NCBI GenBank assembly: GCA_029210625.1
Contig: JARGFU010000014.1
Location: forward strand, 50,956 to 114,955
Length of the DNA stretch: 64,000 bases
Origin: Deltaproteobacteria bacterium
Lineage (GTDB): Bacteria > Myxococcota > Myxococcia > SLRQ01
Reading direction: 5' to 3'
Made by a program: the position numbers and the translations under genes
Shown here: positions 3,101-30,975 of the stretch, one piece after another
How the letters are laid out: each line of letters opens with the position of its first letter
Position numbering within the stretch: the first letter of the stretch is position 1
Notes under the pieces: generated by a model
Databases searched by the model: none
What the model was told of the DNA's origin: nothing
The model's input: only the letters and a program-made list of their open reading frames with translations

Positions 3101-3142
3101 GCGCCGTGCTCACCGCGAGGTGGGCACGGCGTTCGTGTTTTT
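3101..3142 (+). terminator. Rho-independent terminator after the MYXO-CTERM gene
   Basis: A 13-bp stem (3102-3114 pairs with 3119-3131, one U.G pair) is closed by a GCGA (GNRA) tetraloop and followed by TTCGTGTTTTT. It starts 26 nt after the TAG at 3073-3075. Confidence 0.6.
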
Positions 3143-3180
3143 GGGGGAAAAAAAGCGCCGGAGGGCCTATAGATCACCGG

Positions 3181-4965
3181 GTGTCCCGGGCGCTCATCAA
3201 GGTCGGCTACGGCTGCAACGACCACTGCACCTTCTGCCACAGCCTCGAGGATCGCGGCCGGAACGACGACGGACGGCGGGTCGCAGCGAAGATCGACCGG
3301 GCCGCGGACCTGGGCCACTCCATGGCGGTCCTCTCCGGGGGTGAGCCCACCATCCGCCCGGAGCTGATGGCCTGGGCCCGCCACACCCGGAGGCGCGGCC
3401 TGGGCTTCGGGCTGGTCACCAACGGCCGGATGCTCGCCTACGGCGAGAAGGTCGAGGCCCTCCTGGCCGAGGGCCTGGGCTACGTCTACCTCTCCCTCCA
3501 CGGGGGGAGCGCCGCGATCCACGACGCCTGCGTCCGGGCCGAGGCCTTCGAGCAGAGCTACGGGGCCGCCCGGAACCTCGCCGGCCGGGGCCTGGACTTC
3601 ACCGTCAACTGCGTCGTCTGCAAGACCAACCTCGAGCACCTCGACGCCCTGGTCGACCTGCTCGCCCCCCTCGAGGGCGTCCGCCTCACCTTCTCCATGA
3701 CCGAGGCCAAGGGCGGCGCCGATCAGCTCTTCGACTCGGTGGTCCCCCGGGTGAGCGAGGTGGCCGCTGCGGTGGCCGCGGTCATCGCCAGGGGCCGGCA
3801 GGTCGCGCCAGGCCTGCCCCTCCTCCACGGGGGGATCCCCTTCTGTCTCCTCCCGGGGCTCGAGGATCGGCACAGCGACCTGCGCAGCCACGGCTTCGCC
3901 TCGATGTCCGAGGTCTGGGAGGACGACTTCTTCCCGGTGGACAACCGCAACACCGTCCAGCCGGCGCCCTGCCAGGGCTGCCGGCACCGGGGCGCCTGCC
4001 CGGGCCTCTACACCGCCTACCACCAGCGCCACGGAGACGGGGAGCTGCGGCCCGAGGAGGGGCCTCGCTCCAACGCCTTCCACTACGTGCCCCAGCGCGC
4101 CCTCGCCTGGCCTGAGGGGGCCCCCTGCCCGGTGCTGGAGGACGGCCCCTCCCCCTACGACCGGGGCCGGCACCTCCTGCTGCTGCGGGGGGAGTCGCTC
4201 ATCGCCCACCACACCCGCACCCGGGACTTCGCGGACCTCGAGCTCGAGGCGATCAAGGACGCCCTGGGGCAGGTCTACCTCGATCGCTCGACGAAGGACG
4301 CCCCCGACGACTTCGCGGCGGACCTCCAGGCCCTGGAGGAGCTGCCCGTCTGCGCCACCTGCCCGGTCACCGCGCGCTGCACCCACGCCTTCCGCGCCAT
4401 CGACGAGCCGGTCTTCGAGCGGGACGACGCGCGCCTGCGGGAGCGCCTGGGGTCACTGGAGGGCGAGATCCTCGACATCGGCTGCGGCGACGCCCGCTAC
4501 GGCGAGGTCTTCGCGAGCGGGGCCGCGGCCGGGCGCCTGCGCTACTGGGGGATCGATCCGGACGCCGCCCGGCTGGAGGAGCTCGCCCGCCGCTGGCCCT
4601 GGGCCACCCTCGAGGCGACCTCGGCCGAGGCCCTGGAGCTCGCCGAGGCCTCCCTCGATCACGTCCTGGTCCTGCGCGCCTTCAACCACCTGCGGGAACC
4701 CCGGGAGGTGCTCGCCCGCGCCGCCCGGGCCCTCAAGCCCGAGGGCTCCCTGCTGCTGGTCGACAACGTCGCCTTCGGGTTGGTACGCACCCACGAGCAG
4801 GCCGAGCGCGGCGAGCGCGGCGAGGCCGTCTTCGAGCACTATCGCAACGCGGACGATCGAGAGGCCCTCGCCCTCGCCGAGGGGCTCCCCCTCCAGCTCG
4901 TCCACCAGGAGTCCATCTCGCCCGGAACCAGCAACCAGTGGGTGCTGCACTTCCGGCGCACCTGA
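3181..4965 (+). CDS. Radical SAM enzyme fused to a C-terminal class I SAM-dependent methyltransferase domain (rSAM paralog A)
   Basis: GYGCNDHCTFCHS (CX3CX2C); SGGEPT; VTNGRML; C-terminal PCQGCRHRGACPGLYTAYHQRHG; then ILDIGCGDARYG (methyltransferase motif I) and LKPEGSLLLVDN. The track start at 3106 (GTG) lies inside the terminator stem. The next in-frame start is GTG 3181, with GGAGGG 15 nt upstream, so the start is uncertain. Confidence 0.8.
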   Translation: MSRALIKVGYGCNDHCTFCHSLEDRGRNDDGRRVAAKIDRAADLGHSMAVLSGGEPTIRPELMAWARHTRRRGLGFGLVTNGRMLAYGEKVEALLAEGLGYVYLSLHGGSAAIHDACVRAEAFEQSYGAARNLAGRGLDFTVNCVVCKTNLEHLDALVDLLAPLEGVRLTFSMTEAKGGADQLFDSVVPRVSEVAAAVAAVIARGRQVAPGLPLLHGGIPFCLLPGLEDRHSDLRSHGFASMSEVWEDDFFPVDNRNTVQPAPCQGCRHRGACPGLYTAYHQRHGDGELRPEEGPRSNAFHYVPQRALAWPEGAPCPVLEDGPSPYDRGRHLLLLRGESLIAHHTRTRDFADLELEAIKDALGQVYLDRSTKDAPDDFAADLQALEELPVCATCPVTARCTHAFRAIDEPVFERDDARLRERLGSLEGEILDIGCGDARYGEVFASGAAAGRLRYWGIDPDAARLEELARRWPWATLEATSAEALELAEASLDHVLVLRAFNHLREPREVLARAARALKPEGSLLLVDNVAFGLVRTHEQAERGERGEAVFEHYRNADDREALALAEGLPLQLVHQESISPGTSNQWVLHFRRT

Positions 4966-5006
4966 GAGGCGCCGGAGCGCGAGACGAGGAGAGGAAGAGG
5001 GACACG

Positions 5007-6668
5007 ATGCAGGAAAGTGACGCCATCCTCCCGGGAGGGGGGAGCGAGGCCGACAAGATCGCCGAGAAGGAGTCCGCCGCCCACGAGAAGCGCCAGTGGG
5101 TCCGGCTGACCAGCTACTGCAACAACCGCTGCACCTTCTGCCTCGACTCGGCTGCGCACAACGGGACCTTCGTCTCCCGCCGGGAGGTGAGAAGGCAGAT
5201 CATGGACGGCCGCTCTCAGGGGGCCACCCGCCTGATCCTCTCCGGCGGCGAGCCGACCATCCACCCGAACTTCGTCGAGTTCGTGAAGCTCGGGCGGCAG
5301 CTCGGCTACACCAAGGTCCAGACCGTCACCAACGGGCGGCTCTTCTCCTATCCCAAGTTCCTCGCGGCCTGCCTGGACGCCGGCCTCTCCGAGATCACCT
5401 TCTCGGTCCACGGGCACACCGCCAAGGTCCACGACGCCCTCGTCGGGGTGCAGGGCGCCTACGAGGAGGAGCTCGAGGGTCTGGTGGCCGCCCTATCCGA
5501 CGGCCGCCCGATCGTGAACGTGGACGTCTGCCTCAACCGGGGCAACATCAAGGGGCTCCCCACCCTCCTCGACGAGATGATGGAGAAGGGCGTGCGGGAG
5601 TTCGACCTCCTGCACATCATCCCCTTCGGCCGGGCCTTCGATGAGGGCAAGACCGGCCTCTTCTACGACATCGACGAGGCCATGCCCTCCATCCAGTACG
5701 CCCTGGAGCTCTCCAAGCGCCCGGACGTCCACATCTGGTTCAACCGCTTCCCGCCGCCCTATCTCGAGGGCCACGAGGAGCTGATCCAGGATCCCTACAA
5801 GCTCGGCGACGAGGTGCGGGGTCGCCGGGAGGAGTACGACCGCTGGATCGACCAGGGTATCCCGATCTCCTGCCGGGCGCCGGAGCGCTGCTCCCGCTGC
5901 TACCTCGTGCAGCTCTGCGGCAGCCTGGAGGCCCACCTCGCCTCGCGGCAGGCCGACGACTTCGAGGTGCTGCAGGTGCAGGTGGCCGCCGACGGCGCCT
6001 TCTCTCCCCCGGGGGAGAGTAAGGCCGCCGAGCTCTGGATCCGCGCCGCGGATCTCGGCAGCGCCCGGAAGGCCGCCCGGGGCCTGCCGGGGGAGCGCCT
6101 GACCCTGGAGCTCGAGAGCTTCGCGGGACTGGCCGAGGCCCTGGCACCCGACGGAACGCTGGATGGGAGGCCCCTGCGGGCGGCCTACGTGGCCTCCGCC
6201 GGGGAGCTGGACGCGCTCCTGGCCCTGCCGGGCGAGTTCGAGGTGGGCGCGATCCTGGGCGCCGAGCTGGCTGCCCACCTGATGGAGCGCTGGCCGGAGC
6301 CCCCCGCCCGCCTGGTGCTGGCCGCCCGGGGCCGGGAGCGCCTGACGACCGAGAAGGAGCAGGGCGCCGACCTGAAGGCCTTCTTCGAGGCCTACGCGCC
6401 CGACACGAAGGTGCCGGTTGAGGGGGTGCCCGCCTGCCTGGTCGGCGACCCCGAGCGGATCCGGCCCCGGCGCCGGACCCTGACCACCGCCAGCCTCGAC
6501 GGCGCGGGCCGGACCGACATCTTCGCCTTCACCGGCCAGTACATCCTCGACGACTACCTCACCAAGAGCCACCGCTGCTCGGAGTGTCGTCTGAACGACG
6601 AATGCCCCGGTGCGCACATCAACTACGTGCGCGCCCGGGGCTATTCGCAGCTACAGCCCTTGAAGTGA
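5007..6668 (+). CDS. Radical SAM enzyme (rSAM paralog B) with a long C-terminal extension
   Basis: TSYCNNRCTFCLDS; SGGEPTIHP; VTNGRLFSY; an internal CRAPERCSRCYLVQLC; terminal HRCSECRLNDECPGAHINYVRARG. ATG 5007 is preceded by GAGGAGAGGAAGAGGG. The track start at 4938 would overlap the upstream gene. Confidence 0.8.
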   Translation: MQESDAILPGGGSEADKIAEKESAAHEKRQWVRLTSYCNNRCTFCLDSAAHNGTFVSRREVRRQIMDGRSQGATRLILSGGEPTIHPNFVEFVKLGRQLGYTKVQTVTNGRLFSYPKFLAACLDAGLSEITFSVHGHTAKVHDALVGVQGAYEEELEGLVAALSDGRPIVNVDVCLNRGNIKGLPTLLDEMMEKGVREFDLLHIIPFGRAFDEGKTGLFYDIDEAMPSIQYALELSKRPDVHIWFNRFPPPYLEGHEELIQDPYKLGDEVRGRREEYDRWIDQGIPISCRAPERCSRCYLVQLCGSLEAHLASRQADDFEVLQVQVAADGAFSPPGESKAAELWIRAADLGSARKAARGLPGERLTLELESFAGLAEALAPDGTLDGRPLRAAYVASAGELDALLALPGEFEVGAILGAELAAHLMERWPEPPARLVLAARGRERLTTEKEQGADLKAFFEAYAPDTKVPVEGVPACLVGDPERIRPRRRTLTTASLDGAGRTDIFAFTGQYILDDYLTKSHRCSECRLNDECPGAHINYVRARGYSQLQPLK

Positions 6669-9642: not shown

Positions 9643-11685
9643 TCAGAACTTGATGATCTTCGGAGGGTTGGCGCCCTCCTTGATCGTCACCGCCTCGAAG
9701 CGCTCCAGCCCGCTCGGGGGGTTCACGACCTTGATGTTGTGCTTTCCGACCGAGAGCTCGATGTTGCGGGCGGGGCTGCGGCCATGGTCCGTGCCGTCCA
9801 CGTAGACCCGGCACCAGGGGATGCAGTTCACGCTGAGCAGGCCGGTGGCGCCGGAGGCGGCTGGCTTGGTGACGGTCTCCTTGGGCGGCCTCGGCCGCTT
9901 GGGGCGCTTCGGCCGCTTCGGGGGATCGTTCTCGGCCACCACCACCGGATCGGGCTCGGGCGGCGGCGGGGGGTCCTCGACCACCGGATCGGGCTCGGGG
10001 GGCGGCGGCGGGGGATCCTCGACCACCGGATCGGGCTCGGGCGGCGGGGGCGGCGGCTCGGCGACCACCGGATCGGGGTCGGGGGTGGGATCGGGGGCCG
10101 CGATCGGATCGGTGGGGGTGGGATCCGGTGCCTTCACGGGCTCGGGATCGGCCGGCTTCACCGGGTCCGAGGGTCGCACCAGGGGCTGGGGATCACGGGA
10201 ATCGTCCGGCGTCGGGTCCCCGGAGAGCGCGAAGTAGCCGCCGACCCCGGCGAGGATCGCCACCGCTGCCCCGATGCCGATGATCTTCCCCATGGGGGAG
10301 GAGCTCGCCACCGGCTCGTCGTCGTCGTCGCCGAAGAACGCATCCTCGACGATCGGCTCCACGTCCTCGTCGAGGGCCGAGGGACGGATCTCGGAGATGT
10401 CCTTGATCCGGGTCGCCCCCTCGTCGGCGACCGGCGCCGGAGGGACGATCTCCGAGATGTCCTTGATGCGGGTCGCCCCCTCGTCGGCGGCCGCGGGCAC
10501 CGCGGGGATCTCGGAGACCGAGGAGGGCGCGATCCGGGTGGACATGTCCTCCATCCCGGGATCGGCCGCGGGCGGAGGCGCCGCCTGCGGGGCGGGCGGC
10601 GGCGGGGCGGGCGCGGGGACCTCGGCCGCCGGGCCGGCCGCGGCGACCGCCGCAGGGGCGGGCGCGGGCGCGGGCGCAGGCGCCGAGGGCACGGGCGCCC
10701 CGGGGTTGCTGGCGAACTCGGCGGCCGCCTTCTTCGGGAAGGCGAGCTTCTCCTTGATGTGTTCCTCACCGAAGAGGTGGTTGAGGAACTGCTTGAGCTG
10801 GACGTGCGAGGGCGCGTAGGTCCGCTGCGCCAGGAAGTCGTCGATCGCCTCCCGCATCGCCTGGGCCGAGGGGAAGCGGGCGTCGACGTCGCGCTCGAGC
10901 GCGCGCAGGATGATCGCCTCGAGCTCCTCGGGGAGGCTCGGCTGCAGCTGCCGCGGAGGCTTGATCTCCTCCTCGGTGACGGCGAGGAGCATCGCGAGCT
11001 GGTTGTCGCGCTGGAAGACCCGCACGCCGGTGACCATCTCGTAGAGCAGCGCCCCGAGGGCGAAGACGTCGGAGCGGGCGTCCACCAGCTTTCCCCGGGC
11101 CTGCTCCGGGGACATGTACATGAACTTGCCCTTCACCATGCCCGCCTCGGTCTTCACGATCTTGCCGGCGGCCTTGGCGATGCCGAAATCGAGCACCTTC
11201 ACCGAGCCCTGGTAGGTGACCAGGATGTTCGAGGGAGAGATGTCCCGGTGGACGATCCCCAGGGGCTCTCCGGTCTCACCGGTGAGGGTGTGGGCGTAGT
11301 GCAGGCCCTCGCAGGAGAGCGACGCGATCACCGCAGCGATCTGGGGCGGCATGACGCGGCGCTTCTTCCGCAGCAGGCGGAGGATGGAGGAGAGGTCCTC
11401 TCCCCCCAGGTACTCCATCGCCAGGAAGTAGGTCCCCTGCTCCTCACCGAAGTCGAAGACCTGCACGACGTTCGGATGAGAGAGCTGCGCCGCGAGGCGC
11501 GCCTCGTCCAGGAACATGTGGATGAACTCGTCGTCCTGGGCCAGGTGACCTAGCACCCGCTTCACCACGACGGTCTTCCCGAAGCCAGCGGGTCCTTCCT
11601 GCCTGGCAAGGAAGATCTCCGCCATTCCCCCCTGGGCGAGGGGGGTCAGCAGCTTGTATCGCCCTACGGTGTCCGGACCTTCCAT
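9643..11685 (-). CDS. Eukaryotic-like Ser/Thr protein kinase with Pro-rich linker, TM helix and C-terminal PEGA-like domain
   Basis: GGMAEIFLA...VVVKRV (Gly loop and Lys), HRDISPSNILV, DFGIAKA, SPEQ. TM segment IIGIGAAVAILAGVGGYFAL. C-terminal VYVDGTDHGRSPARNIELSVGKHNIKV. Confidence 0.9.
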   Translation of the reverse strand: MEGPDTVGRYKLLTPLAQGGMAEIFLARQEGPAGFGKTVVVKRVLGHLAQDDEFIHMFLDEARLAAQLSHPNVVQVFDFGEEQGTYFLAMEYLGGEDLSSILRLLRKKRRVMPPQIAAVIASLSCEGLHYAHTLTGETGEPLGIVHRDISPSNILVTYQGSVKVLDFGIAKAAGKIVKTEAGMVKGKFMYMSPEQARGKLVDARSDVFALGALLYEMVTGVRVFQRDNQLAMLLAVTEEEIKPPRQLQPSLPEELEAIILRALERDVDARFPSAQAMREAIDDFLAQRTYAPSHVQLKQFLNHLFGEEHIKEKLAFPKKAAAEFASNPGAPVPSAPAPAPAPAPAAVAAAGPAAEVPAPAPPPPAPQAAPPPAADPGMEDMSTRIAPSSVSEIPAVPAAADEGATRIKDISEIVPPAPVADEGATRIKDISEIRPSALDEDVEPIVEDAFFGDDDDEPVASSSPMGKIIGIGAAVAILAGVGGYFALSGDPTPDDSRDPQPLVRPSDPVKPADPEPVKAPDPTPTDPIAAPDPTPDPDPVVAEPPPPPPEPDPVVEDPPPPPPEPDPVVEDPPPPPEPDPVVVAENDPPKRPKRPKRPRPPKETVTKPAASGATGLLSVNCIPWCRVYVDGTDHGRSPARNIELSVGKHNIKVVNPPSGLERFEAVTIKEGANPPKIIKF
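9943..10085. repeat. In-frame tandem repeat (39-42 bp, about 3.3 copies) inside the kinase gene
   Basis: CACCGGATCGGGCTCGGG...TCCTCGAC units on the + strand encode EPDPVVEDPPPPPP repeats in the kinase linker. Confidence 0.85.
10385..10500. repeat. Direct duplication (about 52 bp, 60-bp period) inside the kinase gene
   Basis: Two copies encode DEGATRIKDISEI. Confidence 0.8.
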
Positions 11686-11741
11686 TGCACCCGCCAGTCT
11701 ACAGATCGCACGGAAGGCGGGTCAAAGATCCCGGGTCAACT

Positions 11742-12761
11742 TCAGTGCAGGTCGCTCGCCGGAGGCACCGGGACGAACTCGCCCCAGCCATGGCGGGCAG
11801 CGTAGGATTCGTACACGCCCTGGCAGGTGGGCTCGTAGCGGCAGCCCCCGCAGGGCTCACCCTTGACCCGCCCCTGGGCGTCGATCCGGCCGGCCTCCAG
11901 GATCCGGAAGCGGCCGTCGGCCGAGGTCTTCCCGACGCTCCGGGCCAGGGGCGAGGGGGAGCCGTCCTCGACCTCGAAGGAGGTGTACTCGGCCAGCTTC
12001 CGGACGTGGTGCGGCTCGAACTCGACGGTGATGCAGGGGGGCAGATTGGCCAGCTCGAGCTCCGTGCCCGGCGCGAGCCCCTCGGCCAGGATCGCCCGGA
12101 TCTGCCCCTGGAGCTGCTCGTAGGAGGGAAAGAGCTCGTCCATCGCCAGCAGCACCCGCCCCCGCGCGGCCAGGCCGTCGAGGCGGACGGCGGAGACCCC
12201 CATCCCGGCCAGGAGGCCATAGAGCTCGCCCAGGCGATCGACGTTGGGGCGGACCACCACGGTGCTGGTGCAGATCCGGGTCTCGTCGTCGGCGCCGGCC
12301 AGCAGCGCCCGGAGCCCCGCCACGGTCTGGTCGAAGGCCCCCTCCCGGCCGACCAGGCGATCGTGCAGCTCGGCGTCGGGGCCATGGAGCCCCACCAGGA
12401 AGGCGTTGAAGCCGGCGTCCAGGAGGTCCCGGGCGTAGCCCGGCGACCCCAGCCGCCGGCCGTTGGTCATCAGCCCGATCCGCCCGTAGCCGAGCTCGCG
12501 GGCCTGCTGCCCCAGGGCGGGCAGCTCCTCGAGGAGCGTGGGCTCGCCGGAGGTGAAGTAGACCTCGGGCGTCCCCTGATGGGCCTCGAGGAGCTCCCGG
12601 GTGCGGGACTCGGTCATGGCGGCGTTGACCACGAAGCGGAGCTCCCGATCGTCCTCCACGCAGAAGACGCAGTCGTTGTTGCACAGGGGGCCCACGTGGA
12701 GGTGGATCCGCTCCGGGCGGGAGTTCTGGGGGGGGAGATCCTTCATGGCCTCGGAGCCCAT
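11742..12761 (-). CDS. Radical SAM enzyme (rSAM paralog C)
   Basis: GPLCNNDCVFCVED; TSGEPTLL; MTNGRRLG; LHGPDAELHDRLVGREGAFDQT; C-terminal EPCGGCRYEPTCQGVYESYAARHG. Only 56 nt upstream of the kinase gene on the same strand. Confidence 0.8.
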   Translation of the reverse strand: MGSEAMKDLPPQNSRPERIHLHVGPLCNNDCVFCVEDDRELRFVVNAAMTESRTRELLEAHQGTPEVYFTSGEPTLLEELPALGQQARELGYGRIGLMTNGRRLGSPGYARDLLDAGFNAFLVGLHGPDAELHDRLVGREGAFDQTVAGLRALLAGADDETRICTSTVVVRPNVDRLGELYGLLAGMGVSAVRLDGLAARGRVLLAMDELFPSYEQLQGQIRAILAEGLAPGTELELANLPPCITVEFEPHHVRKLAEYTSFEVEDGSPSPLARSVGKTSADGRFRILEAGRIDAQGRVKGEPCGGCRYEPTCQGVYESYAARHGWGEFVPVPPASDLH

Positions 12762-12913
12762 TGTAGACCGCCCGATCCGGGGAGCCAGCCGGAGGGGGCC
12801 GCCGGCCTCCTGTCCGAGAAGAGGAGGATCTGCCTTGAAAGTCGCGGGACCGGCGGGTTAGGATTGGGGCCCAGGGTGAGCTCCCTTCACCCGACCAAGT
12901 GGGAGGCAGCAAC

Positions 12914-13501
12914 ATGTCCAGGTACGACCGTCGATCCGTCCTGAAGCTGATTGGCCTTGGTGCCGTCGCCGCCGGTACCGGCGTCGCCGCGAAGTCCGCA
13001 GTGGCCAGCACCGTGACCCAATCTTCGAACCTGGATCTCGGGCTCGCGTCGGTTCCGACCGCGGCGCCGACCGCGGTCGCCGCCCAGGCGCCCGAGGCCG
13101 TGGCCGTGGACGAGAGCTCGCCCTGGTGGCTGATCGCCCCCTACGGCGTGAACAGCAAGGTGGCCCTCTCCGAGATCCGTCACCTCCAGCACTCCCAGAG
13201 CGGCGCGGTCTTCGCGTTCCTCGTGGCCAGTAACGGCAAGCCCTACCGGATCGACATCTGCCGTCACGACGCCTCGATCGACGCCCCGGCGCCGATCGCT
13301 CGGACCGCCGGCTACGACCTCTTCATCGCCAACGAGGGCGAGGGTCAGGCCCCGACCGATCGGGAGCAGGGCCTCGCCGTCCTCGCGCTCGCCGACGCCA
13401 TCCGCTCGGCCGAGCTCGGCGGGAAGCGCCTCTCGCTCCTGACGATGCGCGAGCGCTGGACCCGCTTCAGCAAGGTCGAGCTGGGGCCCTCCCTGGCCTA
13501 G
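12914..13501 (+). CDS. Tat-signal small secreted protein of unknown function
   Basis: MSRYDRRSVLKLIGLGAVAAGTGVAAKSAVA has a twin-arginine motif (RRSVLK). GGGAGG lies 8 nt upstream of ATG 12914. I recognise no family for the mature part. Confidence 0.6.
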   Translation: MSRYDRRSVLKLIGLGAVAAGTGVAAKSAVASTVTQSSNLDLGLASVPTAAPTAVAAQAPEAVAVDESSPWWLIAPYGVNSKVALSEIRHLQHSQSGAVFAFLVASNGKPYRIDICRHDASIDAPAPIARTAGYDLFIANEGEGQAPTDREQGLAVLALADAIRSAELGGKRLSLLTMRERWTRFSKVELGPSLA

Positions 13502-13543
13502 GCCCGAAGCGCGGCCATCGGATCCTTGACCGGAGGTGGGGCG

Positions 13544-14443
13544 ATGCCGAGGTGGTTCGCCCTCCTCCTCGGGTATCGGTGCAACAACCGCTGCCTGTTC
13601 TGTGGGCAGGCGGAGGTGCGAGAAGCCGACGCCCAGCCGGTAGCGGAGCCTGCGCTCCGCGCCGCCCTCGAGGCTGCCCGTGCTTCGGGATCGCCCGGCG
13701 TCTGGCTGGTCGGCGGTGAGCCGACCCTGAGGGAGGATCTCCCCCAGCTGATCGGTCTCGCCCGGGAGGTGGGCTTCTCGCGGGTCGGCCTGCAGACCAA
13801 CGGAAGACGCCTGGCCTACGGCGGCTACCGGCAGGATCTCCTGGCGGCCGGCCTGACCGATCTCGAGGTCTCCCTCCAGGGCAGCTCCGCCGACTGCCAT
13901 GATCACCTCACCCGGGTGCCCGGCGCCTTCGAGCAGACCCTCCGGGGCCTGCGGGGCCTGAGCGGGAGCGGGCTGCGGCTCGGCCTGGCCACGCTCCTCG
14001 ACCGCTCCAACTTCCGCCACCTGGGAGAGCTGCTCCGGCTCGCCCTCCGGCTCGAGGCTCAGCACCTGCGCTGGTCCTTCCCGCAGGACCGGGGTGAGGT
14101 CCGCCAGGATCCCCGCCGCGTCGGGCCCCGCCTCACCCTCCTGGCTCCCCGGCTGCGAGCAGTTGCCGACCAGCTCGCCGCCGCGGGCGGCGGCGCGCCC
14201 CGCCCGAGCCTCGCCGGGGTGCCGGACTGTCACCACCCCGAGGGCTTCCGGAGAGGTCCGGCCGACCTCTCGGAGGGCCTGCGCACCTTCGGGGAGGCCT
14301 GCGCGGCCTGCCCCTCCCGGGAGAGCTGTCCGGGCCTCGCCGCAGGCTACGCCCGGCACCACGGCACCGCGGAGCTGACTCCCCCGGCGACGGCCCGGGA
14401 GATCCTGCCGGACGACGAGGCCCCGGGCCTCTACCTCGCCTGA
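13544..14443 (+). CDS. Radical SAM enzyme (rSAM paralog D)
   Basis: GYRCNNRCLFCGQ; VGGEPTLRED; QTNGRRLAY; LQGSSADCHDHLTRVPGAFEQT; C-terminal EACAACPSRESCPGLAAGYARHHG. GGAGGT lies 8 nt upstream of ATG 13544 (the track TTG start is 13526). Confidence 0.8.
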   Translation: MPRWFALLLGYRCNNRCLFCGQAEVREADAQPVAEPALRAALEAARASGSPGVWLVGGEPTLREDLPQLIGLAREVGFSRVGLQTNGRRLAYGGYRQDLLAAGLTDLEVSLQGSSADCHDHLTRVPGAFEQTLRGLRGLSGSGLRLGLATLLDRSNFRHLGELLRLALRLEAQHLRWSFPQDRGEVRQDPRRVGPRLTLLAPRLRAVADQLAAAGGGAPRPSLAGVPDCHHPEGFRRGPADLSEGLRTFGEACAACPSRESCPGLAAGYARHHGTAELTPPATAREILPDDEAPGLYLA

Positions 14444-14493
14444 TCCCGGCGACGGAACGAGGACGGCCGCTCCCTACGGGACGGCCGTGTTCG

Positions 14494-14511
14494 CCGGCGC
14501 GATGGCGCCGG
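14494..14511. terminator. GC hairpin between convergent genes (weak terminator candidate)
   Basis: CCGGCGC-gatg-GCGCCGG: 7-bp stem, 4-nt loop, no clear U tract. A second hairpin, ACGGCCG...CGGCCGT, lies just upstream. Confidence 0.2.
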
Positions 14512-14556
14512 ACGCTTCACGCCCCTCCAGCCGGATGGCCGGGGGCGAGAAGGGGG

Positions 14557-14919
14557 CTACCAGGAGCCGTGCGAGCCGTGGCTGCCGTGCGAGCCGTGGC
14601 TGCCGTGCGAGCCATGGCTGCCGTGCGAGCCGTGGCTGCCGTGCGAACCGTGGCTGCCGTGCGAGCCGTGGCTGCCGTGCGAGCCGTGGCTGCCGTGCGA
14701 GCCGTGCGAGCCGTGGCTGCCGTGCGAGCCGTGGCTGCCGTGCGAACCGTGGCTGCCGTGCGAACCGTGTGAGCCGTGGGAGACGTGCTGGGCGAGCAGG
14801 CGGCCGTCGCCCTCGTCGCTCTCGATGCCAGCCGAGCGCCCGGCCTGATCGACAGCCTCACTCTCGACCTTGGAGAGCATTCCCCGTGCACGCTTCTTGA
14901 AAGTCGGAATCTTGGCCAT
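14557..14919 (-). CDS. Leader + HVS-(HGS)24-W repeat peptide; candidate His-Xaa-Ser-type ribosomal precursor (HxsA-like)
   Basis: MAKIPTFKKRARGMLSKVESEAVDQAGRSAGIESDEGDGRLLAQ, then HVS, 24 x HGS, and a terminal W. GAGGGGA lies 5-6 nt upstream of ATG 14919. All variation between repeat units is synonymous only in this frame. Same strand as, and directly downstream of, the two HxsD-like genes. Confidence 0.7.
   Translation of the reverse strand: MAKIPTFKKRARGMLSKVESEAVDQAGRSAGIESDEGDGRLLAQHVSHGSHGSHGSHGSHGSHGSHGSHGSHGSHGSHGSHGSHGSHGSHGSHGSHGSHGSHGSHGSHGSHGSHGSHGSW
14563..14787 (-). repeat. 25 tandem 9-bp units with an 18-bp higher-order period
   Basis: The + strand alternates CGAGCCGTG / GCTGCCGTG, with variants CGAGCCATG (x1), CGAACCGTG (x3), TGAGCCGTG, GGAGCCGTG and GGAGACGTG. 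On the minus strand these read CAC/CAT-GGC/GGT-TCG/AGC/TCA/TCC. Confidence 0.95.
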
Positions 14920-14949
14920 GGCTTCCCCTCGGTGAAAAAAGCTGTTCGG

Positions 14950-14979
14950 ATTCTAGCAGATGCCCCCGAGCCCTGTCCT
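14950..14979 (-). promoter_or_regulatory. Candidate sigma70-like promoter for the HGS-repeat gene
   Basis: On the minus strand: AGGACA (14979-14974), 18-nt spacer, TAGAAT (14955-14950). It lies about 30 nt upstream of the ATG, in the most AT-rich stretch of this locus. Confidence 0.25.
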
Positions 14980-14983
14980 GCGG

Positions 14984-15022
14984 AAAAACGACTGGGCTGG
15001 ATCCGGGAGCGAAACTCCAGCC
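14984..15022 (-). terminator. Weak terminator-like hairpin plus T run after the second HxsD-like gene
   Basis: On the minus strand: GGCTGGA-14 nt-TCCAGCC followed by CAGTCGTTTTT. The stem is short and the loop long. Confidence 0.2.
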
Positions 15023-15048
15023 AAAGGATTTCAGGCACTTAGGCCCAA

Positions 15049-15279
15049 TCAGTCAGGGTGCCCTGCCCTCTTCTCCTCGACGGTGAGGGCCAGGACGTAG
15101 TTGGCGAACTCGGCAGTGATCGCCTCGACGTCGTCTTCCTCGTCGATGGCGTCGATCTCGAGCCGGTAATAGGGCTCGACCTCGGAGAGGACGATCCGGG
15201 CCGCCTCGCCGAAGAGCTTGATCGCCTCGTCGGTCGCCGCGCGGGAGTAGAGGCCCTGGTGCAGCTGGAGGACGCTCAC
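15049..15279 (-). CDS. Small HxsD-like protein (paralog 2, 76 aa)
   Basis: LYSRAATDEAIKLFGEAARIVL...ITAEFANYVLALTVEEK is collinear with the upstream paralog (LY-x46/47-FAN-x-(L/V)L). The GTG start overlaps the upstream TGA (GTGA). Confidence 0.5.
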   Translation of the reverse strand: MSVLQLHQGLYSRAATDEAIKLFGEAARIVLSEVEPYYRLEIDAIDEEDDVEAITAEFANYVLALTVEEKRAGHPD

Positions 15280-15779
15280 TTCTCGCCCTCGGCCGGGGCC
15301 TCCGGCGGACTCGCCGGCTCGCCTTCCTTCGGAGCGTCGCCGGACTTGCCGTACTTCTCCTCCCAGGAGAGGGCGATCCCCAGCGGATCGTCGAAGGCGT
15401 CGTCCGAGAAGTCCATCTCGTCGAAGTCGTCGAGGAAGTCACCGCCGACCGCGCCGGAGAGCGCCGAGGCCGCGACGGCCTCGATGATCGGCCGGTTGTG
15501 CTCGGCGATCCGCCGTCGCCAGGCCTGCGCCAGCAGCTCGTTGGCGAAGTCGCCGGCGATCTGCTCCGGCACGCCCGACCCGTTCCGGGGGCGGAAGGTC
15601 ACCTGCACCCGGTTCTCGGCGGGCAGGTCGAGGTAGACGAAGCTACGATCGATGAAGGTGTAGGCGGCTCCGTAGATGTCGTCGAGGTCGTAGAGCTCGA
15701 GGGGGAAGGTCGCCTTGACCACACCCTCGCTCTCGCTCACCTCGATCTGCTCCCCGGCCGCGTTCTTCGAGTCACTCAT
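15276..15779 (-). CDS. HxsD-like protein (paralog 1, 167 aa) with an acidic C-terminal tail
   Basis: Only the last 504 nt of the 827-aa track ORF are used. MSDSKNAAGEQIEVSESEGVVKATFPLELYDLDDIYGAAYTFIDRSFVYLDL...GDFANELLAQAWRRRIAEHNRPII resembles the LLNDYxLRE-type C-terminal motif I recall for HxsD (TIGR03976). ATG 15779 is verified, with AAGGACAGG upstream. Confidence 0.55.
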   Translation of the reverse strand: MSDSKNAAGEQIEVSESEGVVKATFPLELYDLDDIYGAAYTFIDRSFVYLDLPAENRVQVTFRPRNGSGVPEQIAGDFANELLAQAWRRRIAEHNRPIIEAVAASALSGAVGGDFLDDFDEMDFSDDAFDDPLGIALSWEEKYGKSGDAPKEGEPASPPEAPAEGEK

Positions 15780-15901: not shown

Positions 15902-18082
15902 TCAGGTCCGGAAGCGCTGGACCTCGGTGCGGAGCACCTCGGACTGCTCGGAGAGGGTGTCGATGGTCAGCTCCAGGTCCTTCACCGCCGTCCCCTGCCG
16001 ATCGGTGGCCTCCTTGATGTTGTCCACCGCCAGCATGACCTGCTCGGCCCCCTTGGTCTGCTCCTTCTGGGCCGCGTTGAGGCGCTGCACCATGTCGGAG
16101 ATCGACTCGATGGCCTGGGTGATCTGCTTGCTGCCCCGCGCCTGCTCCTGAGAGCTGCGCTCGACGTGCTTGGTGATGATCTTCATCCGCTCGGCCGAGC
16201 GCATGATCTGCTCGGAGCCCCGCGCCTGCTCGGCGGTCGCCCGGGCGATCTCCTGGACGGTCTCGGCGATGCGGCTGATGGCGCCGGTGACCTGCTTGCT
16301 GCCCCGGCTCTGCTCGACGGTGGCCCGGGCGATGGCCTTCACCATCTGGGTGGACTTGCTCGCCGAGTCGAGGATCTGGCGCAGGGCGAGATCGGCCTCG
16401 CCGGCGAGGCGGACGCCCTCGTCGACCCGCTTCACGCCGCGCTCCATGGCGGAGATGGCGTTGTGGGACTCGTCCTGGACCGAGGAGATCAGGTCGGCGA
16501 TCTCCTTGGTGGAGGAGCCGGTCCGCTCGGCGAGGTCCTTGATCTCCTCGGCGACGACCGCGAAGCCCTTGCCGTGCTCGCCCGCCTGGGCCGCGATGAT
16601 CGCGGCGTTGAGGGCGAGGAGGTTGGTCTGGTCGGCGACCTCGTCGATCACCTCGAGGATGCTGCCGATCTTGGCGATCTTGTCGCCGAGGGCCTCGATG
16701 ACGTCGGCCGCCACCCGGGAGGACTCCCGGATGTTGTCGATGCCCTCGATGGTGGCCCCGAGGGCCTCGCCCGCGCCCCGGGCGTCGGAGCTGACCTGCT
16801 CCGAGAGCCGGGCGGTCTCGTTGGCGTTCATCTCGACCTGGGAGATGGAGACGTCCATCTCGTTCATGGCCGAGGAGGTCTCCTCGGCGGTGGCCGAGAG
16901 GTCCTCGACGTTCCGGGCGACCTCCTTGATGGAGTAGGTCATCTGCTCGATGGCGGTGGTCGTCTCCTCCACGCTGGCCGCCAGGCTGCCGATGTTGGAG
17001 GTCACCTCGTCGTTGGTCGCCGCCATCTCCAGGATGCTCGAGGAGGACTCCTCGGCGCTCTGGGCGAGGGTCTCGACGTTCTCGCCGATGCCCTTGAGGC
17101 TCACCAGCATCTGGGACATCGAGGAGGAGGTCTGGTCCACGCTGGCCGCGGTGGAGGCCGAGCCCTGGGCGACCACCTGGCTGGTGCGGGAGACCCGCTC
17201 GGCCACGGTGCCCAGCGAGTCGGTCACGCCCTGCACCCGGCCGAGGACCCCGTGGAGGTTCTCGGCGATGCCGTTGAGGGCATCCGAGAGCTCCCCCAGC
17301 TCGTCGTCGGCCATCCGCTCCGTGCGGCCGGTGAGGTCGAACTCCGACATCCGGGTCGCCGCCCGCTTCATCACACCGATCGGCGCCATGATGAAGACGC
17401 GGGAGATCGCGAAGGCCGCCAGCAGATAGACGACGATGCCCGCGACCAGCAGTCCGAACATCAGCTTGCCGACCTTGGTGAGGCTGTCCTCCAGGCCGGA
17501 GCGAGACATCCCGAGCACCACGAAGCCGAGGCTCTCCTCGACCACGTCGCCGCCCGCCTTGGGCTCGGCGAGCTCGTCGATGAAGGAGTCGCCGAGGAGG
17601 AAGTCCTCCCCGGTGTTGTCGACGCCGTCGGCGGGGGCCGCGGCCAGCGAGTGGCTCTTCACCTCGACCCCGTAGTGCATGAAGTGATCGTCTTCGAAGT
17701 GCAGGCGCTGGAGGTTGCTGCGGCGGGCCACCAGGACGCTGGTGGCGTGGTCGCGCCACTCGTCCCGGAAGCGGGAGGCGAGCACCTTCTCGCCCTTCGG
17801 CCCGAGGAGGGCCACGTAGGCCACGTCGGGGTCCTCGAGGGTCTCGGTGACGATCGCGGCGGCCTCGTCCCGGTCCGCCTGCAGCAGCGCCAGCTCGGAG
17901 CGGTTCGCCAGCATCGCGAGGGTCGAGCGGGCGCGGCGGTCGAGCGAGTCGGTCAACGCGCTGGAGATCACCGTCCCGAGGGCCAGCCCCGTGGTGACGA
18001 AGAGGAGCACGAGGAGGCCGGAGAACCAGAGGATCAGGTTCGCCCGGAGCCCTCGACGACGGAATGAACTGGTGAGACTCAT
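15902..18082 (-). CDS. Methyl-accepting chemotaxis protein (two TM segments, HAMP, MCP signalling domain)
   Basis: [34 protein letters not shown] is the highly conserved hairpin-tip motif. A HAMP-like segment follows the second TM. Long heptad-rich repeats. Confidence 0.9.
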
Positions 18083-18107: not shown

Positions 18108-19055
18108 CTACTCGACGACGTTCATGCCCGGGACCGATGCGGGATCGATCTTCAGCCCGAGGCGCTCGGCGCTCCGCCGATTGACGAGGATGGTGCTGGG
18201 AGGATCCTGGACGGGGATGTCCGAGGGGTTCTCTCCCTTGAGGATGGACCGGACGAGGCGGCCGGTCGATTCACCCACGGCCCGATAGTCGGGCGCGACA
18301 CCCGCGAGGGCGCCGGCCTTGACGAAGGCCGCGGAGAAGACGAGGAGGGGCTTCCGCTCGCGAAGGCTCACGAGCAGCATGTGCTTGAAGGTCTGGGCGG
18401 TGACCACGGTGGCGTCCGGCACGAGCCAGACCGCGTCGACCTGGGAGATCAGCTCCTCGAAGGCGGCGGGGACCTCGGCCGTCCCGCCGACCTTCACCGC
18501 GTTGAGCTCGAGCTTCAGCTCCCGGGCGGCGCCTTCGGCGTCGGTGATGAGCTTCCGTGAGCGCTTCTCGTCGTAGATGACCCCGACCTTCTGGAGCTTG
18601 GGGATCACCTGCTGGTAGCGGCGGAACTGCTCGGAGGGGGGGATCTCGAGGCGCACCCCGGTCGTGTTCGAGTCGTTGAGGCCCCGCTTGGCGGGCGTGA
18701 GGACCATGGAGAAGACCAGGGGCTTCCCCGGGAACTGCTTGCGCAGCGCCGCGGCGGCCTTCGAGCCGATCCCGACGAGGCAGCCCGGATCCTGCTTCTC
18801 GATCTTCGCGATGACGTCGGCCGAGAGGTCACCGTTCTCGAGCAGATCGTAGACCGGCGGCTTGGGGCTGAGGCTCCCGAGGAGGCCCTCCAGGGCGACC
18901 TCGTACGCAGCGATGTCGGGGCTGCGCACCACCACCGCGCCATCTGCCCTCGCCCCGAGCGGGAGCGCCGCGGAGGCCAGCCCGAGGATCACCGCAGCGA
19001 GCGCCGTCCGCCGGGGAAGCGACACAGGAGGGTGGTGGGTGCGGTTTCTTCGCAT
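18108..19055 (-). CDS. Periplasmic ABC_sub_bind-family substrate-binding-like protein
   Basis: Signal peptide [55 protein letters not shown]...[13 protein letters not shown] is typical of the PF04392-type family that often partners with sensor proteins. Confidence 0.65.
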
Positions 19056-24152: not shown

Positions 24153-25214
24153 ATGCGAAGCACCCTCCCCTTCCTCCTCTCCCTCACCTTCGCCCTCCTC
24201 CCCGCCGTCGGCCACGCGGCGGACGAGGACGGGAAGCCCCAGATCCTCGCGACCCTCCCCACGGTGGGCGCCCTCCTTCGGGAGGTCGGCGGGGACGCCA
24301 TCGAGGTGAGCGTCCTCGCCCGCGGCGACGAGGATCCCCACTTCGTCCAGGCCACCCCGCGGCTGATGCGGCAGGCGCGCGACGCCGACGCCCTCTTCGA
24401 GGTGGGGATGCGCCTCGAGCTCTGGGTCGACAACGTCACCGGCGGCGCGGGCAACCCCAGGCTGCAGCGCGGCATGCCAGGCCGGGTGGTCCTCTCCGAT
24501 GGGGTGCCGCCCCTCGAGGTGCCGACCCGGATCGACGCCGCCCAGGGCGACATCCACCCCCAGGGCAACCCGCACATCTGGCTCGATCCGGTGCGGGCCA
24601 AGCTGATGGCGCGCAACGCGGCCGCCGGCCTGCAGAAGCTCTTCCCGGAGCAGGCCGCGCTCTTCGCGGCGAACCTCGCCGACTTCGAGGGGAGGCTCGA
24701 TCGCGCCTTCTACGGCGAGGCGCTGCTGAAGACCGTCGGCGCCCGCAAGCTCGACCGGGCGGTGCTCTCCGGGCGGCTGCACGACCTCCTCGATCGCGAG
24801 TTCAAGGGGAAGCCCCTGCGGGCCCTCGCGGGCGGCTGGCTGAAGCAGGCCGAGCCCCTGGCGGGCCGCGACCTCGTCGAGTTCCACAAGGTCTGGGCCT
24901 ACTTCGCCTCGGCCTTCGGCTTCACGCTGGTGGGCACCGTCGAGGCCTACCCGGGCATCCGGCCGGGGCCGGGCCACCTCGAGAAGGTGGTGGCCCTGAT
25001 GAAGGCGAAGTCGGTGCCGCTGATCCTGGTGGACAACTTCTACCTCGAGGATCTGCCCCGCCACGTGGCGGGCAAGGCGGGCGCGGGCTTCGTGATGCTC
25101 CCGGATCAGGTCGGCGGCGAGAAGGACCTGGAGACCTACTTCCAGCTCATCGACCGGATCCTCTCCCACATCCTCGGCGCCCTCGAGGCCGGGAAGGCGG
25201 CGAACACACCATGA
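24153..25214 (+). CDS. Metal ABC transporter substrate-binding protein (ZnuA/TroA family)
   Basis: DEDPHFVQATP, GDIHPQGNPHIWLDP, LFPEQAALFAANLADF. Confidence 0.8.
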   Translation: MRSTLPFLLSLTFALLPAVGHAADEDGKPQILATLPTVGALLREVGGDAIEVSVLARGDEDPHFVQATPRLMRQARDADALFEVGMRLELWVDNVTGGAGNPRLQRGMPGRVVLSDGVPPLEVPTRIDAAQGDIHPQGNPHIWLDPVRAKLMARNAAAGLQKLFPEQAALFAANLADFEGRLDRAFYGEALLKTVGARKLDRAVLSGRLHDLLDREFKGKPLRALAGGWLKQAEPLAGRDLVEFHKVWAYFASAFGFTLVGTVEAYPGIRPGPGHLEKVVALMKAKSVPLILVDNFYLEDLPRHVAGKAGAGFVMLPDQVGGEKDLETYFQLIDRILSHILGALEAGKAANTP

Positions 25215-29970: not shown

Positions 29971-30968
29971 GCCGCCACCTCCCGGTCGCCCCCACCCCGC
30001 GGCGCCCCGGCCCGGGGCAGCAGGGCCAGCGTCGAGAGGAGCCGCCGCCGGTGGGCCCGCCCCTCTCCCGGCCCGAGGCTCGAGGAGGGGGTGTCCAGGG
30101 CGACCGCGTCCCCCTGCTGGAGGTGGGCCTCGAGGGTGGAGGCCGCGTCCCGGATGGCGGCCTCGTAGGCCGCGTCGTCTCCCTCGGGGCCCCGCAGGAC
30201 GAGGCGCACCTGCCCGCCGGTGGAGAGCTCCCGCTCCACGATGAGCAGGGTCCCCATCCGCAGGGAGCGGCGCCAGTGGATCTGGCGGGCCTCGTCGCCG
30301 AGGCGGTAGGGCCGCAGGGCGTGCAGCTCGTCACCGCTCCCGGCCCGCGGGCGGCTGGCGGCCAGCGCCCGGCTGCGGGCGACCGGCTCGAGGCGGGTGG
30401 CGCGGCCCCGCCCGGGCCAGACCAGGAGGGTGGTGCCCTCGCGCAGGTGGCGGGTCTTGGCGAAGATCCCGAAGGGGTAGCGGGTGGTGACCCGCAGCAC
30501 GCCCAGCTTCAGCTCCCCCCGCCGCTCGGCCTTGACCCGCAGGCGCAGGTTCCGGGAGGAGGAGGCGGGCAGGTGGAAGAGCGTGGCCTCCTCGACGGAG
30601 TAGCCCTCGCCGGGCTCGGCGGTGAAGCGCAGCCCGATGGAGGGGAAGAGGCGGTTGCCGTTGTGCACCTCCAGCCCGACCAGGGTGGGCTCGCCGGCGC
30701 GGATCTCGGGAGGCAGGCGCAGACGCAGGGAGATGCGCTTGAGCGCCGACTCGGAGAGCAGCCCCGAGAGGACGATCAGGGCCAGCAGCACGCCGAGGGC
30801 CAGGAAGAGGAGGTTGTTGCCGGTGTTCACCGCGGCGAAGCCGACCCCGAAGGTGAGGCCGATGTAGTAACGGCCCTCCCGGGTCACCTTCAGGGAGCGG
30901 GGCGGCCGCAGGAAGCGGCGCAAGGCCCTCCACCCGGTCCGCCAGCGGCTCTCGAGCACCCTGGACAC
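29967..30968 (-). CDS. DUF58 domain protein
   Basis: Two N-terminal TM segments. LRPYRLGDEARQIHWRRSLRMGTLLIVERE signature. Overlaps the TGase start by 4 nt. Confidence 0.8.
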   Translation of the reverse strand: MSRVLESRWRTGWRALRRFLRPPRSLKVTREGRYYIGLTFGVGFAAVNTGNNLLFLALGVLLALIVLSGLLSESALKRISLRLRLPPEIRAGEPTLVGLEVHNGNRLFPSIGLRFTAEPGEGYSVEEATLFHLPASSSRNLRLRVKAERRGELKLGVLRVTTRYPFGIFAKTRHLREGTTLLVWPGRGRATRLEPVARSRALAASRPRAGSGDELHALRPYRLGDEARQIHWRRSLRMGTLLIVERELSTGGQVRLVLRGPEGDDAAYEAAIRDAASTLEAHLQQGDAVALDTPSSSLGPGEGRAHRRRLLSTLALLPRAGAPRGGGDREVAA

Positions 30969-30975
30969 CTCGTCT

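Follow-up and report, generated by a model that had tools for sequence, protein, structure and literature searches.

A probable rearranged, HxsB-less member of the HxsA4-type His-Xaa-Ser systems joined to a Tat-protein module in a Myxococcota genome

What kind of system is encoded where the gene for a peptide with 25 His-Xaa-Ser units lies among genes for radical S-adenosylmethionine (rSAM) enzymes, a pair of HxsD-like proteins and a protein with a predicted twin-arginine translocation (Tat) signal? We addressed this question for positions 11,742 to 15,779 of a 64-kb stretch of DNA, hereafter called the window, from Deltaproteobacteria bacterium (Myxococcota; GenBank assembly GCA_029210625.1, contig JARGFU010000014.1). 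An earlier note, made from the letters of the window alone, had described a non-canonical His-Xaa-Ser-like maturation locus and had held that the cassette fits nothing known. The description was borne out, with HxsA4, HxsD_rel and HxsD all reaching curated cutoffs. The claim that nothing known fits has to be given up, as curated NCBIfam models exist for HxsA4, HxsC4 and HxsD_rel and the canonical His-Xaa-Ser (HXS) system is an anti-phage system (PMC13128918). The locus is probably a rearranged, HxsB-less “type 4” (HxsA4) member joined to a separable Tat-protein module, and it represents a recurrent Myxococcota cluster in which several rSAM enzymes would probably modify the 25-unit His-Gly-Ser (HGS) peptide. 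Because this kind of locus is already curated and its canonical relative has now been characterised, the locus opens no new category. We see in it a distinct variant of the HxsA4/HxsC4/HxsD_rel kind, marked by the lack of HxsB, a rearranged gene order, an outlier HxsC4-like enzyme, the longest repeat array and three recurrent accessory families.

At about 71% GC, the window yields lists of open reading frames (ORFs) that are full of shadows, and we picked the real genes by a filter on third-position GC content (GC3) together with family searches. Every gene that the earlier note had listed, including two further rSAM paralogs, was found where it had been placed, intact and coding-like, with GC3 values of 0.88–0.96. 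Two ORFs, at 14487-14900 (+) and 15058-15636 (+), were rejected as antisense shadows of the HGS repeat and HxsD genes. Both pass a naive GC3 filter and cluster across loci, and one of them is a “RASRGC” repeat. When one genome per GTDB species was scanned with a profile, 462 relatives of one of the enzymes, rSAM C, came to light, and the 80 best loci were used for mapping; almost all of these are from Myxococcota (Polyangium, Nannocystis, Chondromyces, Minicystis, Sandaracinaceae and Kofleriaceae). The genome that the window comes from was itself in neither the genome collection nor the gene index. The comparison covered 160 related loci, metagenome loci among them, numbered in the style of L001; 48 loci were full-length. 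The earlier note had let its call depend on synteny in relatives, and the gene set is indeed syntenic in related genomes. The co-occurrence of these genes is not due to chance: the same parts stand together in many genomes.

The peptide gene (14557..14919, minus strand) encodes a precursor of 120 aa that scored 129.3 bits against the HxsA4 model NF038313 (cutoff, 55). The precursor consists of a 44-aa leader starting MAKIPTFKKRARGMLSKVE and a core of 25 HxS units, HVS and then (HGS)24, that ends in W. The array occupies 14563..14787 on the minus strand (called as 14566-14787 by Tandem Repeats Finder, with a period of 18 and 12.8 copies), and its Ser codons alternate between AGC and TCG. With 25 units, it was the longest array among the loci compared, the others having 6–20 units. 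The leader motif and the ...HGSW end are common to about 30 loci, and in an alignment both ends of the peptide match those of about 28 family members. The usual QHCSHGS junction reads QHVSHGS in the window peptide, the junction Cys being replaced by Val. There was no match between the peptide and HxsA (TIGR03979), and matches to HxsA2 and HxsA3 were weak.

The only Pfam family to match the peptide was Collagen (43.4 bits; cutoff, 27.2), and the X residue is Gly in essentially all myxobacterial HxsA4 repeats, while it varies in other HxsA types. Both observations would suit a (Gly-Ser-His)n core that forms a collagen-like Gly-X-Y triple-helical rod in the envelope. We regard such a rod as very improbable, given that the peptide has no prolines, charge pairs or trimerisation domain, that a Collagen match is expected for any repeat with Gly at every third residue and that the curated assignment is HxsA4.

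Two HxsD-family genes accompany the peptide gene on the minus strand. The long form, HxsD (HxsD-like 1; 15276..15779, 167 aa), scored 50.0 bits against TIGR03976, exactly at the cutoff of 50, and HxsD_rel (HxsD-like 2; 15049..15279, 76 aa), whose gene overlaps that of HxsD by 4 bp, scored 59.3 bits against NF038315 (cutoff, 41). The window HxsD is 45–52% identical to the HxsD proteins of 16 other loci, has a GC3 of 0.93 and carries a C-terminal acidic tail with the invariant DPLGIxxSWExKYGK. HxsD_rel resembles the N-terminal domain of the 167-aa HxsD (hhalign probability 92%, E 6.6e-7), and on this alignment the pair is a duplication; the two genes are paired in 16 of the 80 loci. The canonical HxsD motifs, LYW and LLNDYxLRE (PMC13128918), are degenerate in both proteins, reading LELYDL and FANELLAQAWR in HxsD and LYS and FANYVLALT in HxsD_rel. 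A structure search with HxsD gave no solved-structure match.

How these genes are arranged elsewhere sets the window apart. In 30 of the 80 loci, the gene directly upstream of HxsC4, and on its strand, is that of HxsA4, with peptides of the form ...QHCSHGS(HGS)nW in which n is 6–20. Between HxsD_rel and the peptide gene, other loci have a 1.7-kb gene that encodes a true HxsB (574 bits; TIGR03978 cutoff, 370), and HxsB occupies this position in 16–17 of the 80 loci. The identities of HxsB and HxsC4 in these loci thus define a standard layout of HxsD, HxsD_rel, HxsB, HxsA4 and HxsC4, which we observed in L034, L035, L045, L054, L060, L071, L074 and others. The order in the window is HxsD, HxsD_rel, HxsA4, a convergent pair of genes for rSAM D and the Tat-signal protein (Tat200), and then rSAM C. 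The peptide and rSAM C genes are 1.8 kb apart, with the opposite-strand Tat200–rSAM D pair between them, and the standard adjacency is absent. Within 4.6 kb we found three sigma-70-like sites where 0.1 would be expected, all intergenic and correctly oriented, although these are consensus matches only. They precede the genes for the peptide (14950..14979, minus strand, 31 nt upstream of the start codon), for Tat200 (12835..12864, plus strand, in the divergent intergenic region) and for a Ser/Thr kinase (11696-11725).

No HxsB could be found in the window: when true HxsB was searched by tblastn over the 64 kb, the best match, to a generic rSAM core, had an E of 0.009, and HxsB was not among the top 25 families of any window rSAM. 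Where HxsB stands in other loci, the window has a gap of just 130 bp that separates HxsD_rel from the peptide gene. Of the 11 HxsD-bearing full-length loci, 10 carry HxsB, L009 being the only other one without it. The missing HxsB is the most unusual point of the locus and had been overlooked by the earlier note. Because L009 is not the closest relative of the window in HxsD or Tat200, the two losses look independent, and we discarded shared ancestry of the two HxsB-less loci. A link between the loss of HxsB and the loss of the junction Cys, considered as a thioether site, was likewise dropped, since L072, L080 and L082 keep HxsB yet have QHASHGS or QHGSHGS at the junction, and since several peptides with the Cys come from loci where HxsB is missing from the surrounding 10 kb.

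The four rSAM paralogs are the only ones in the 64 kb and are 28–35% identical to each other. They comprise an rSAM-methyltransferase fusion (3106..4965, +; 619 aa, an HxsC-like rSAM with a class I methyltransferase domain, PF04055 and Methyltransf_11/12/25), the HxsC-like rSAM-576 (4938..6668, +; 576 aa, PF04055), whose gene overlaps that of the fusion by 28 bp, the divergent HxsC4-like rSAM C (11742..12761, −; 339 aa, motif CNNDCVFC, probable start 12746) and the HxsC-like rSAM D (13526..14443, +; 305 aa, PF04055, motif CNNRCLFC), which is convergent on the peptide gene. The best family for all four was HxsC4 or HxsC, yet the scores were far below the cutoffs. Against HxsC4 (NF038332; cutoff, 500), rSAM C scored 251 bits and the other three 98–115 bits (rSAM D, 115). 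Against HxsC (TIGR03977; cutoff, 267.9), the scores were 74.5 bits for rSAM C, 80.3 for rSAM D, 51.8 for the methyltransferase fusion and 82.0 for rSAM-576. True HxsC4 proteins next to the peptide in other loci scored far higher (629 bits in L054 and 597 bits in L033), and in a neighbour-joining tree rSAM C formed a long isolated branch outside the HxsC4 clade.

All four enzymes have CxxxCxxC, one upstream Cys and CxxCx5C (C...CxxCx5C); the methyltransferase fusion and rSAM-576 have a second CxxCx5C, and the C-terminal Cys module of rSAM-576 is duplicated. rSAM C keeps the invariant cysteines of its family (C31, C34, C243, C304, C307 and C313), and rSAM D has CxxxCxxC, C235 and C259/262/268. 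None of the four gave a SPASM match in Pfam. Mutagenesis has shown that a second Fe-S site matters in E. coli HxsB and HxsC (PMC13128918), and the auxiliary cysteines of the window enzymes would fit such a site. A structure search with the rSAM C family returned generic rSAM cores only.

Relatives of these enzymes recur across genomes. rSAM C has about 49 protein-cluster relatives, those with about 39% identity being named HxsC4 in Myxococcales and in metagenome-assembled genomes of Polyangiaceae. The best matches of rSAM D hold the same position in L082 (42%) and L009 (43%), and a metagenome scan with rSAM D for closer relatives of the layout reached only 42% identity. Orthologs of the methyltransferase fusion (520–600 bits) adjoin Hxs cores or Tat200 in about 10–12 loci, orthologs of rSAM-576 (430–558 bits) occur in about 10 loci, and the order of fusion and then rSAM-576 is kept in L009, L012, L044 and L003. 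All eight parts lie within 8 kb in L009, and L009, L035, L045, L054 and L080 each hold HxsA4, HxsD, HxsD_rel, Tat200 and the methyltransferase fusion. The 58-kb metagenome contig L082 repeats the core geometry but keeps HxsB: Tat200, rSAM D and another rSAM converge there on HxsA4, HxsB, HxsD_rel and HxsD. The earlier note had seen misfits in the methyltransferase fusion, the Tat protein and the multiple rSAM enzymes, all of which turn out to be recurrent modules in other genomes.

The closest relative, L081 (GCA_030590875.1, 3.1 kb), keeps the order rSAM D, Tat200, rSAM C and kinase. The amino acid identities and dN/dS values against L081 were 64–66% and 0.26 for rSAM D, 69–70% and 0.30 for Tat200, and 66% and 0.33 for rSAM C; for the kinase they were 94% and 0.05. 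As dS was similar for all four genes, the dN/dS values of 0.26–0.33 indicate that the system genes are functional, under purifying selection, and evolve much faster than the flank. Between the kinase gene (9643-11685, −) and its neighbour, the comparison with L081:2204-3118 shows a sharp change of evolutionary rate at the gene boundary.

These comparisons also bear on whether the locus is a standard cluster in decay that suffered deletion of HxsB and an insertion or inversion and makes no product. Such decay would account for the lack of HxsB, for the 251 bits of rSAM C against about 600 for true HxsC4, for the reading QHVSHGS at the junction and for the 64–69% identity of the system genes to L081 beside 94% for the kinase. 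We nevertheless find it improbable. The ORFs are all intact with coding-like GC3, selection on them is purifying, the catalytic and auxiliary cysteines are kept, and the repeat array is the longest seen and shows no erosion. In addition, the order of rSAM D, Tat200 and rSAM C persists in L081, L009 is HxsB-less as well, L082 shares the convergent layout, and the junction Cys is also missing from the three HxsB-keeping loci named above.

The kinase itself (9643..11685, −) has a C-terminal PEGA-like segment, and its membership in the system is uncertain. It lies directly downstream of rSAM C in the window and of an HxsC4 homolog in L081 and eight other loci. Those eight loci (L012, L019, L022, L024, L025, L031, L043 and L051, at about 10000–14800) have an “orphan” HxsC4 with no HxsA4 within 10 kb, and the kinase gene that comes next is on the strand of HxsC4, an arrangement like that of rSAM C and the kinase in the window. 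The earlier note had counted the kinase among the genes flanking the core; its adjacency was upheld, but its link to the system is weak. Because the kinase occurs mostly at orphan-HxsC4 loci, has a promoter-like site of its own and is under a different constraint, its membership is unproven. The order in Polyangium is HxsC4, histidine kinase, Ser/Thr kinase and membrane protein; we had considered the window protein PEGA493 as the counterpart of the protein after the kinase there, and BLASTP showed no similarity.

The gene for Tat200 (12899..13501, +) precedes that of rSAM D. Its start is probably ATG 12914, because homologs, in which the twin arginine is invariant, begin MSRYDRR. The N-terminus, MSRYDRRSVLKLIGLGAVAAGTGVAAKSAVAS, contains DRRSVLK followed by a hydrophobic stretch, and a Tat signal is predicted from the presence of the motif, an h-region and an AxA-type c-region. 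At 50% identity, the Tat200 family has 887 clusters by an exhaustive profile search, and for 689 of these E was <= 1e-10; this result overturned the picture of a tiny family given by word-indexed searches (4 and 14 clusters). Among full-length representatives, 132 of 138 have an RR-x-hydrophobic-hydrophobic motif near the N-terminus. Tat200 had no match in Pfam, NCBIfam or PADLOC, and ten sampled family members had no Pfam domain; two relatives of Tat200 gave weak matches to Pfam TAT_signal. In the AlphaFold2 model, residues 72–190 mostly have pLDDT >90, and the mature domain of about 120 aa is predicted to fold as four strands against a long helix, with a dip in confidence at the conserved loop N145-x-G-x-G-xxx-T153. 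A Foldseek search of the PDB found no relative of the model (best E, 0.18).

Of the 80 loci, 18 encode a Tat200-like protein, and an rSAM D-like gene often comes next (L035, L054, L063 and L078). In GCA_030429545.1 (JAUIFF010000001.1, at about 1.2 Mb; L162:8033-12774), we observed a module of an rSAM-methyltransferase, Tat200, an rSAM and an aKG-HExxH hydroxylase, the last scoring 79.7 bits against TIGR04267 (aKG-HExxH peptide beta-hydroxylase). The Hxs core of the same genome, HxsD-HxsB-HxsA4-HxsC4 (L060), lies about 1.05 Mb away, and the Tat200 module is therefore separable. In L054, too, an aKG-HExxH hydroxylase gene comes after those of Tat200 and an rSAM; L026, L055 and L009 also have one, and there is none in the window. 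In L039 (18643-20310, −), a weak Tat200-like domain (27 bits) stands in frame with an HxsC-like rSAM with no stop between them and may be a fusion.

Do Tat200 and HxsA4, then, belong to one system? They could be two neighbouring independent systems, in which Tat200 is itself the substrate of rSAM D and the rSAM-methyltransferase and is then exported folded by the Tat route, with HxsD, HxsD_rel and HxsA4 forming a separate unit; in other genomes the aKG-HExxH hydroxylase would modify Tat200 as well. We hold this to be a real but clearly less likely possibility. It draws on the recurrence of Tat200 followed by an rSAM (in L081, L082 and L162 in addition to the four loci above), on the in-frame arrangement in L039 and on the conserved loop NxGxGxxxT, whose lower model confidence could mark a modification site. 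Against it, 14 of the 48 full-length loci have Tat200 no more than 10 kb from an HxsC4 homolog, and Tat200 adjoins HxsA4 in at least 10 loci, which by our own estimate is far above chance for a genome of about 10 Mb, and the enzymes of the Tat200 module are all HxsC-like. Known substrates of rSAM and aKG-HExxH enzymes are usually short peptides, whereas Tat200 has a folded domain of about 120 aa.

Other observations favour two independent systems and at the same time weigh against a type 4 locus joined to a Tat-protein module: in seven full-length loci, Tat200 and several rSAMs stand without any HxsA4 in the surrounding 10 kb; at about half of the HxsA4 loci, Tat200 is likewise missing over that distance; and the two lie about 1.05 Mb apart in GCA_030429545.1. 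Since Tat200 and HxsA4 are often apart, the data do not require Tat200 to act as a carrier. To these adverse points we add that HxsB, which is needed for HxsA processing in E. coli (PMC13128918), is missing, and that rSAM C, at half of the HxsC4 cutoff, may belong with the kinase-linked orphan HxsC4 arrangement. PADLOC gave only generic, weak viperin-like rSAM matches in the window, and the family was not found on viral contigs, which also count against our reading; as there are no tRNAs in the window either, we discarded a defence-island signature.

The joined arrangement that we favour raises the question of how the peptide product would leave the cytoplasm. The precursor has no hydrophobic segment, its maximum Kyte-Doolittle value over 15 residues being −0.17. 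Precursors from other phyla, found at metagenome loci, have a leader [IL]PxIKKxLKxFL.SEEGK, shared with IPTFKKRARGMLSKVE in the window, and non-myxobacterial HxsA-type precursors have a hydrophobic helix after the leader motif, which is absent from myxobacterial HxsA4 leaders except that of L079. Because relatives carry an export signal in cis and the window peptide has none, the product is probably exported in trans, with Tat200 as a candidate carrier. In Tat hitch-hiker export, a signal-less partner rides with a Tat-signal protein, as in the small and large subunits of hydrogenases. The window resembles such cases in that the gene for a twin-arginine protein adjoins that of a signal-less partner, which its relatives suggest acts outside the cytoplasm. 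It differs in that neither a cofactor site nor a known fold could be recognised in Tat200, whose partnership with HxsA4 is putative.

In L079 (1191-1661, −), the HxsA4 precursor has its own Tat signal, ARRDFLTASTTLVLVGAATLLTGRSALA, which stands in cis after the leader and before the HGS core; no other myxobacterial HxsA4 was found to carry an export signal. Ten other loci (L083, L095, L108, L116, L118, L130, L139, L145, L147 and L152) are non-myxobacterial Hxs variants of lower GC. All of them have HxsD, HxsD_rel and HxsB and a hydrophobic helix after the leader, and their peptides have mixed H[GASV]S repeats and end in CCCG... or GGWC. These variants are probably of the HxsA2 and HxsA3 types.

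Beyond the core, the flanking genes are unrelated. A methyl-accepting chemotaxis protein (15902-18082, −) is encoded directly upstream of HxsD, followed by an ABC substrate-binding protein (18108-19055, −) and a PBP1A-family penicillin-binding protein (19272-22109, −). The chemoreceptor, the ABC binding protein, a ZnuA-like protein, a 1004-aa protein, unk337 and PEGA493 had no tblastn match in the 80 loci, and PBP1A matched only L031, a locus without Hxs core parts. We therefore rejected the flanking genes as parts of the system, including the chemoreceptor, which the earlier note had named among the flanking genes. At 28000-36000, the GC content of the window rises to 0.74–0.77, above that of the rest.

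The ZnuA-like periplasmic zinc-binding protein (24153-25214, +) is encoded 9 kb from the peptide gene, and the peptide has 25 histidines, one at every third residue. A His-rich metal-binding peptide, serving as a metallochaperone, a metallophore or a Zn/Ni/Cu buffer and not as a defence effector, would suit both facts. This explanation has little probability in our judgement: ZnuA and the other flanking genes have no counterpart in the 80 loci, no metal transporter or regulator recurs in unbiased clustering, and a plain His-rich peptide would presumably not need up to eight rSAM enzymes. ZnuA lies near no related locus, and its proximity to the His-rich peptide gene is probably coincidental.

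Clustering of all coding-like ORFs gave as recurrent families the rSAMs, HxsB, HxsD, Tat200 and the Ser/Thr kinase. It also gave three families of which the window has no member, namely a Cys-rich secreted protein (17 loci), a “GYPPCC” protein (11 loci) and the aKG-HExxH hydroxylase. The Cys-rich secreted protein (about 525 aa; L025:18139-19713, −, and 16 other loci) and the GYPPCC-motif protein (about 430 aa; L015:8856-10157, −, and 10 other loci) had no NCBIfam match. No protease or transporter family matched any core gene, which agrees with the earlier note, where no obvious protease or exporter had been seen in the core.

The canonical HXS system (HxsD-HxsB-HxsC-HxsA; TIGR03976-03979) blocks the entry of phage DNA (Li et al., Nat Commun 2026, PMC13128918) and was first defined in silico by Haft & Basu 2011, as cited in PMC13128918. 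In that system, an SHRSS motif carries a +8 Da modification, HxsD is a binding partner of HxsC, HxsA is periplasmic once mature, and HxsB is essential in E. coli (PMC13128918). Pseudomonadota hold 99.7% of HXS systems, and the arrangement HxsD-HxsB-HxsC-HxsA is found in 99.6% (PMC13128918). Myxococcota and the A2–A4 variants are not mentioned in PMC13128918, and a search of the papers available gave no other one on them. The window shares with canonical HXS an HxS-repeat substrate, a small HxsD-family protein, HxsC-like rSAMs with a second Fe-S site, predicted in the window enzymes, and, probably, maturation of the substrate in the cytoplasm before it leaves. By contrast, it lacks HxsB, has four HxsC-like paralogs instead of one, has HxsD duplicated, adds a Tat-signal protein and the methyltransferase fusion, and differs in gene order and in its host, a member of Myxococcota where canonical hosts are almost all Pseudomonadota. 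Its substrate, a 120-aa peptide, contains 25 HGS units and lacks both the signal peptide and the peptidoglycan-binding domain of canonical HxsA, which is about 214 aa long with 5 repeats.

Compared with the standard Myxococcota HxsA4 cluster, the window has the same leader motif, ...HGSW end, HxsD and HxsD_rel and HxsC4-like rSAM, and Tat200, the methyltransferase fusion and rSAM-576 often accompany the core in both. It differs by the deletion of HxsB, by the inverted Tat200–rSAM D pair that lies between the peptide and rSAM C, by an rSAM C that is a family outlier, by the junction Cys-to-Val change and by the lack of the aKG-HExxH hydroxylase, the Cys-rich secreted protein and the GYPPCC protein. 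There is also a likeness to rSAM products with short tandem-motif precursors among ribosomally synthesised and post-translationally modified peptides (RiPPs), such as the poly-cyclopropylglycine peptide (PMC9062424). In both, a leader is followed by many copies of a 3–4-residue motif, each a potential site for the same rSAM chemistry. The enzyme families differ, however, and the window has far more rSAM paralogs.

We propose that the HxsD/HxsD_rel pair would bind the 120-aa precursor through the leader, IPxFKK...L...E, and would present the (HGS)25 core to the HxsC-type rSAM enzymes. By analogy with E. coli HxsB, HxsC and HxsD, these enzymes would install covalent changes on His and/or Ser of the repeats, and the fused methyltransferase may, speculatively, add methyl groups. 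That HxsD and HxsD_rel are kept although HxsB is gone supports a partnering of HxsD-type proteins with HxsC-type enzymes. From the canonical system (PMC13128918) we infer that the repeats would be the target of modification and that maturation would precede export. The product would be carried to the envelope in trans, in the simplest case by binding to Tat200, and could act there, by analogy with HXS, as an envelope-level effector, possibly against phages. The division of labour among the rSAMs, methylation by the fusion, Tat hitch-hiking and the anti-phage role are all speculative. A bolder version, which we consider unlikely, is a distinct HxsB-free pathway in which a battery of HxsC-like rSAMs, one fused to a methyltransferase, would make a heavily modified poly(His-Gly-Ser) that becomes periplasmic by way of a Tat carrier with a new fold.

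For the HXS family, the window offers a natural HxsB knockout in which HxsD, HxsD_rel and HxsC-like enzymes remain, and the locus thus separates the contribution of HxsB from that of HxsC. With 25 identical target motifs, modification should be far easier to detect and to solve by mass spectrometry or nuclear magnetic resonance than at a single SHRSS site. Three families without a curated model, Tat200 with its 887 clusters, the rSAM-methyltransferase fusion and rSAM-576, travel with Hxs cores, and in other genomes the aKG-HExxH hydroxylase travels with them. If Tat200 is a carrier, this would address how signal-poor Hxs products leave the cytoplasm. Should the distinct pathway prove true, the peptide would be the first known case of Tat hitch-hiking by a RiPP-like product, and it might serve predatory bacteria as a new envelope-level effector against phages or predation.

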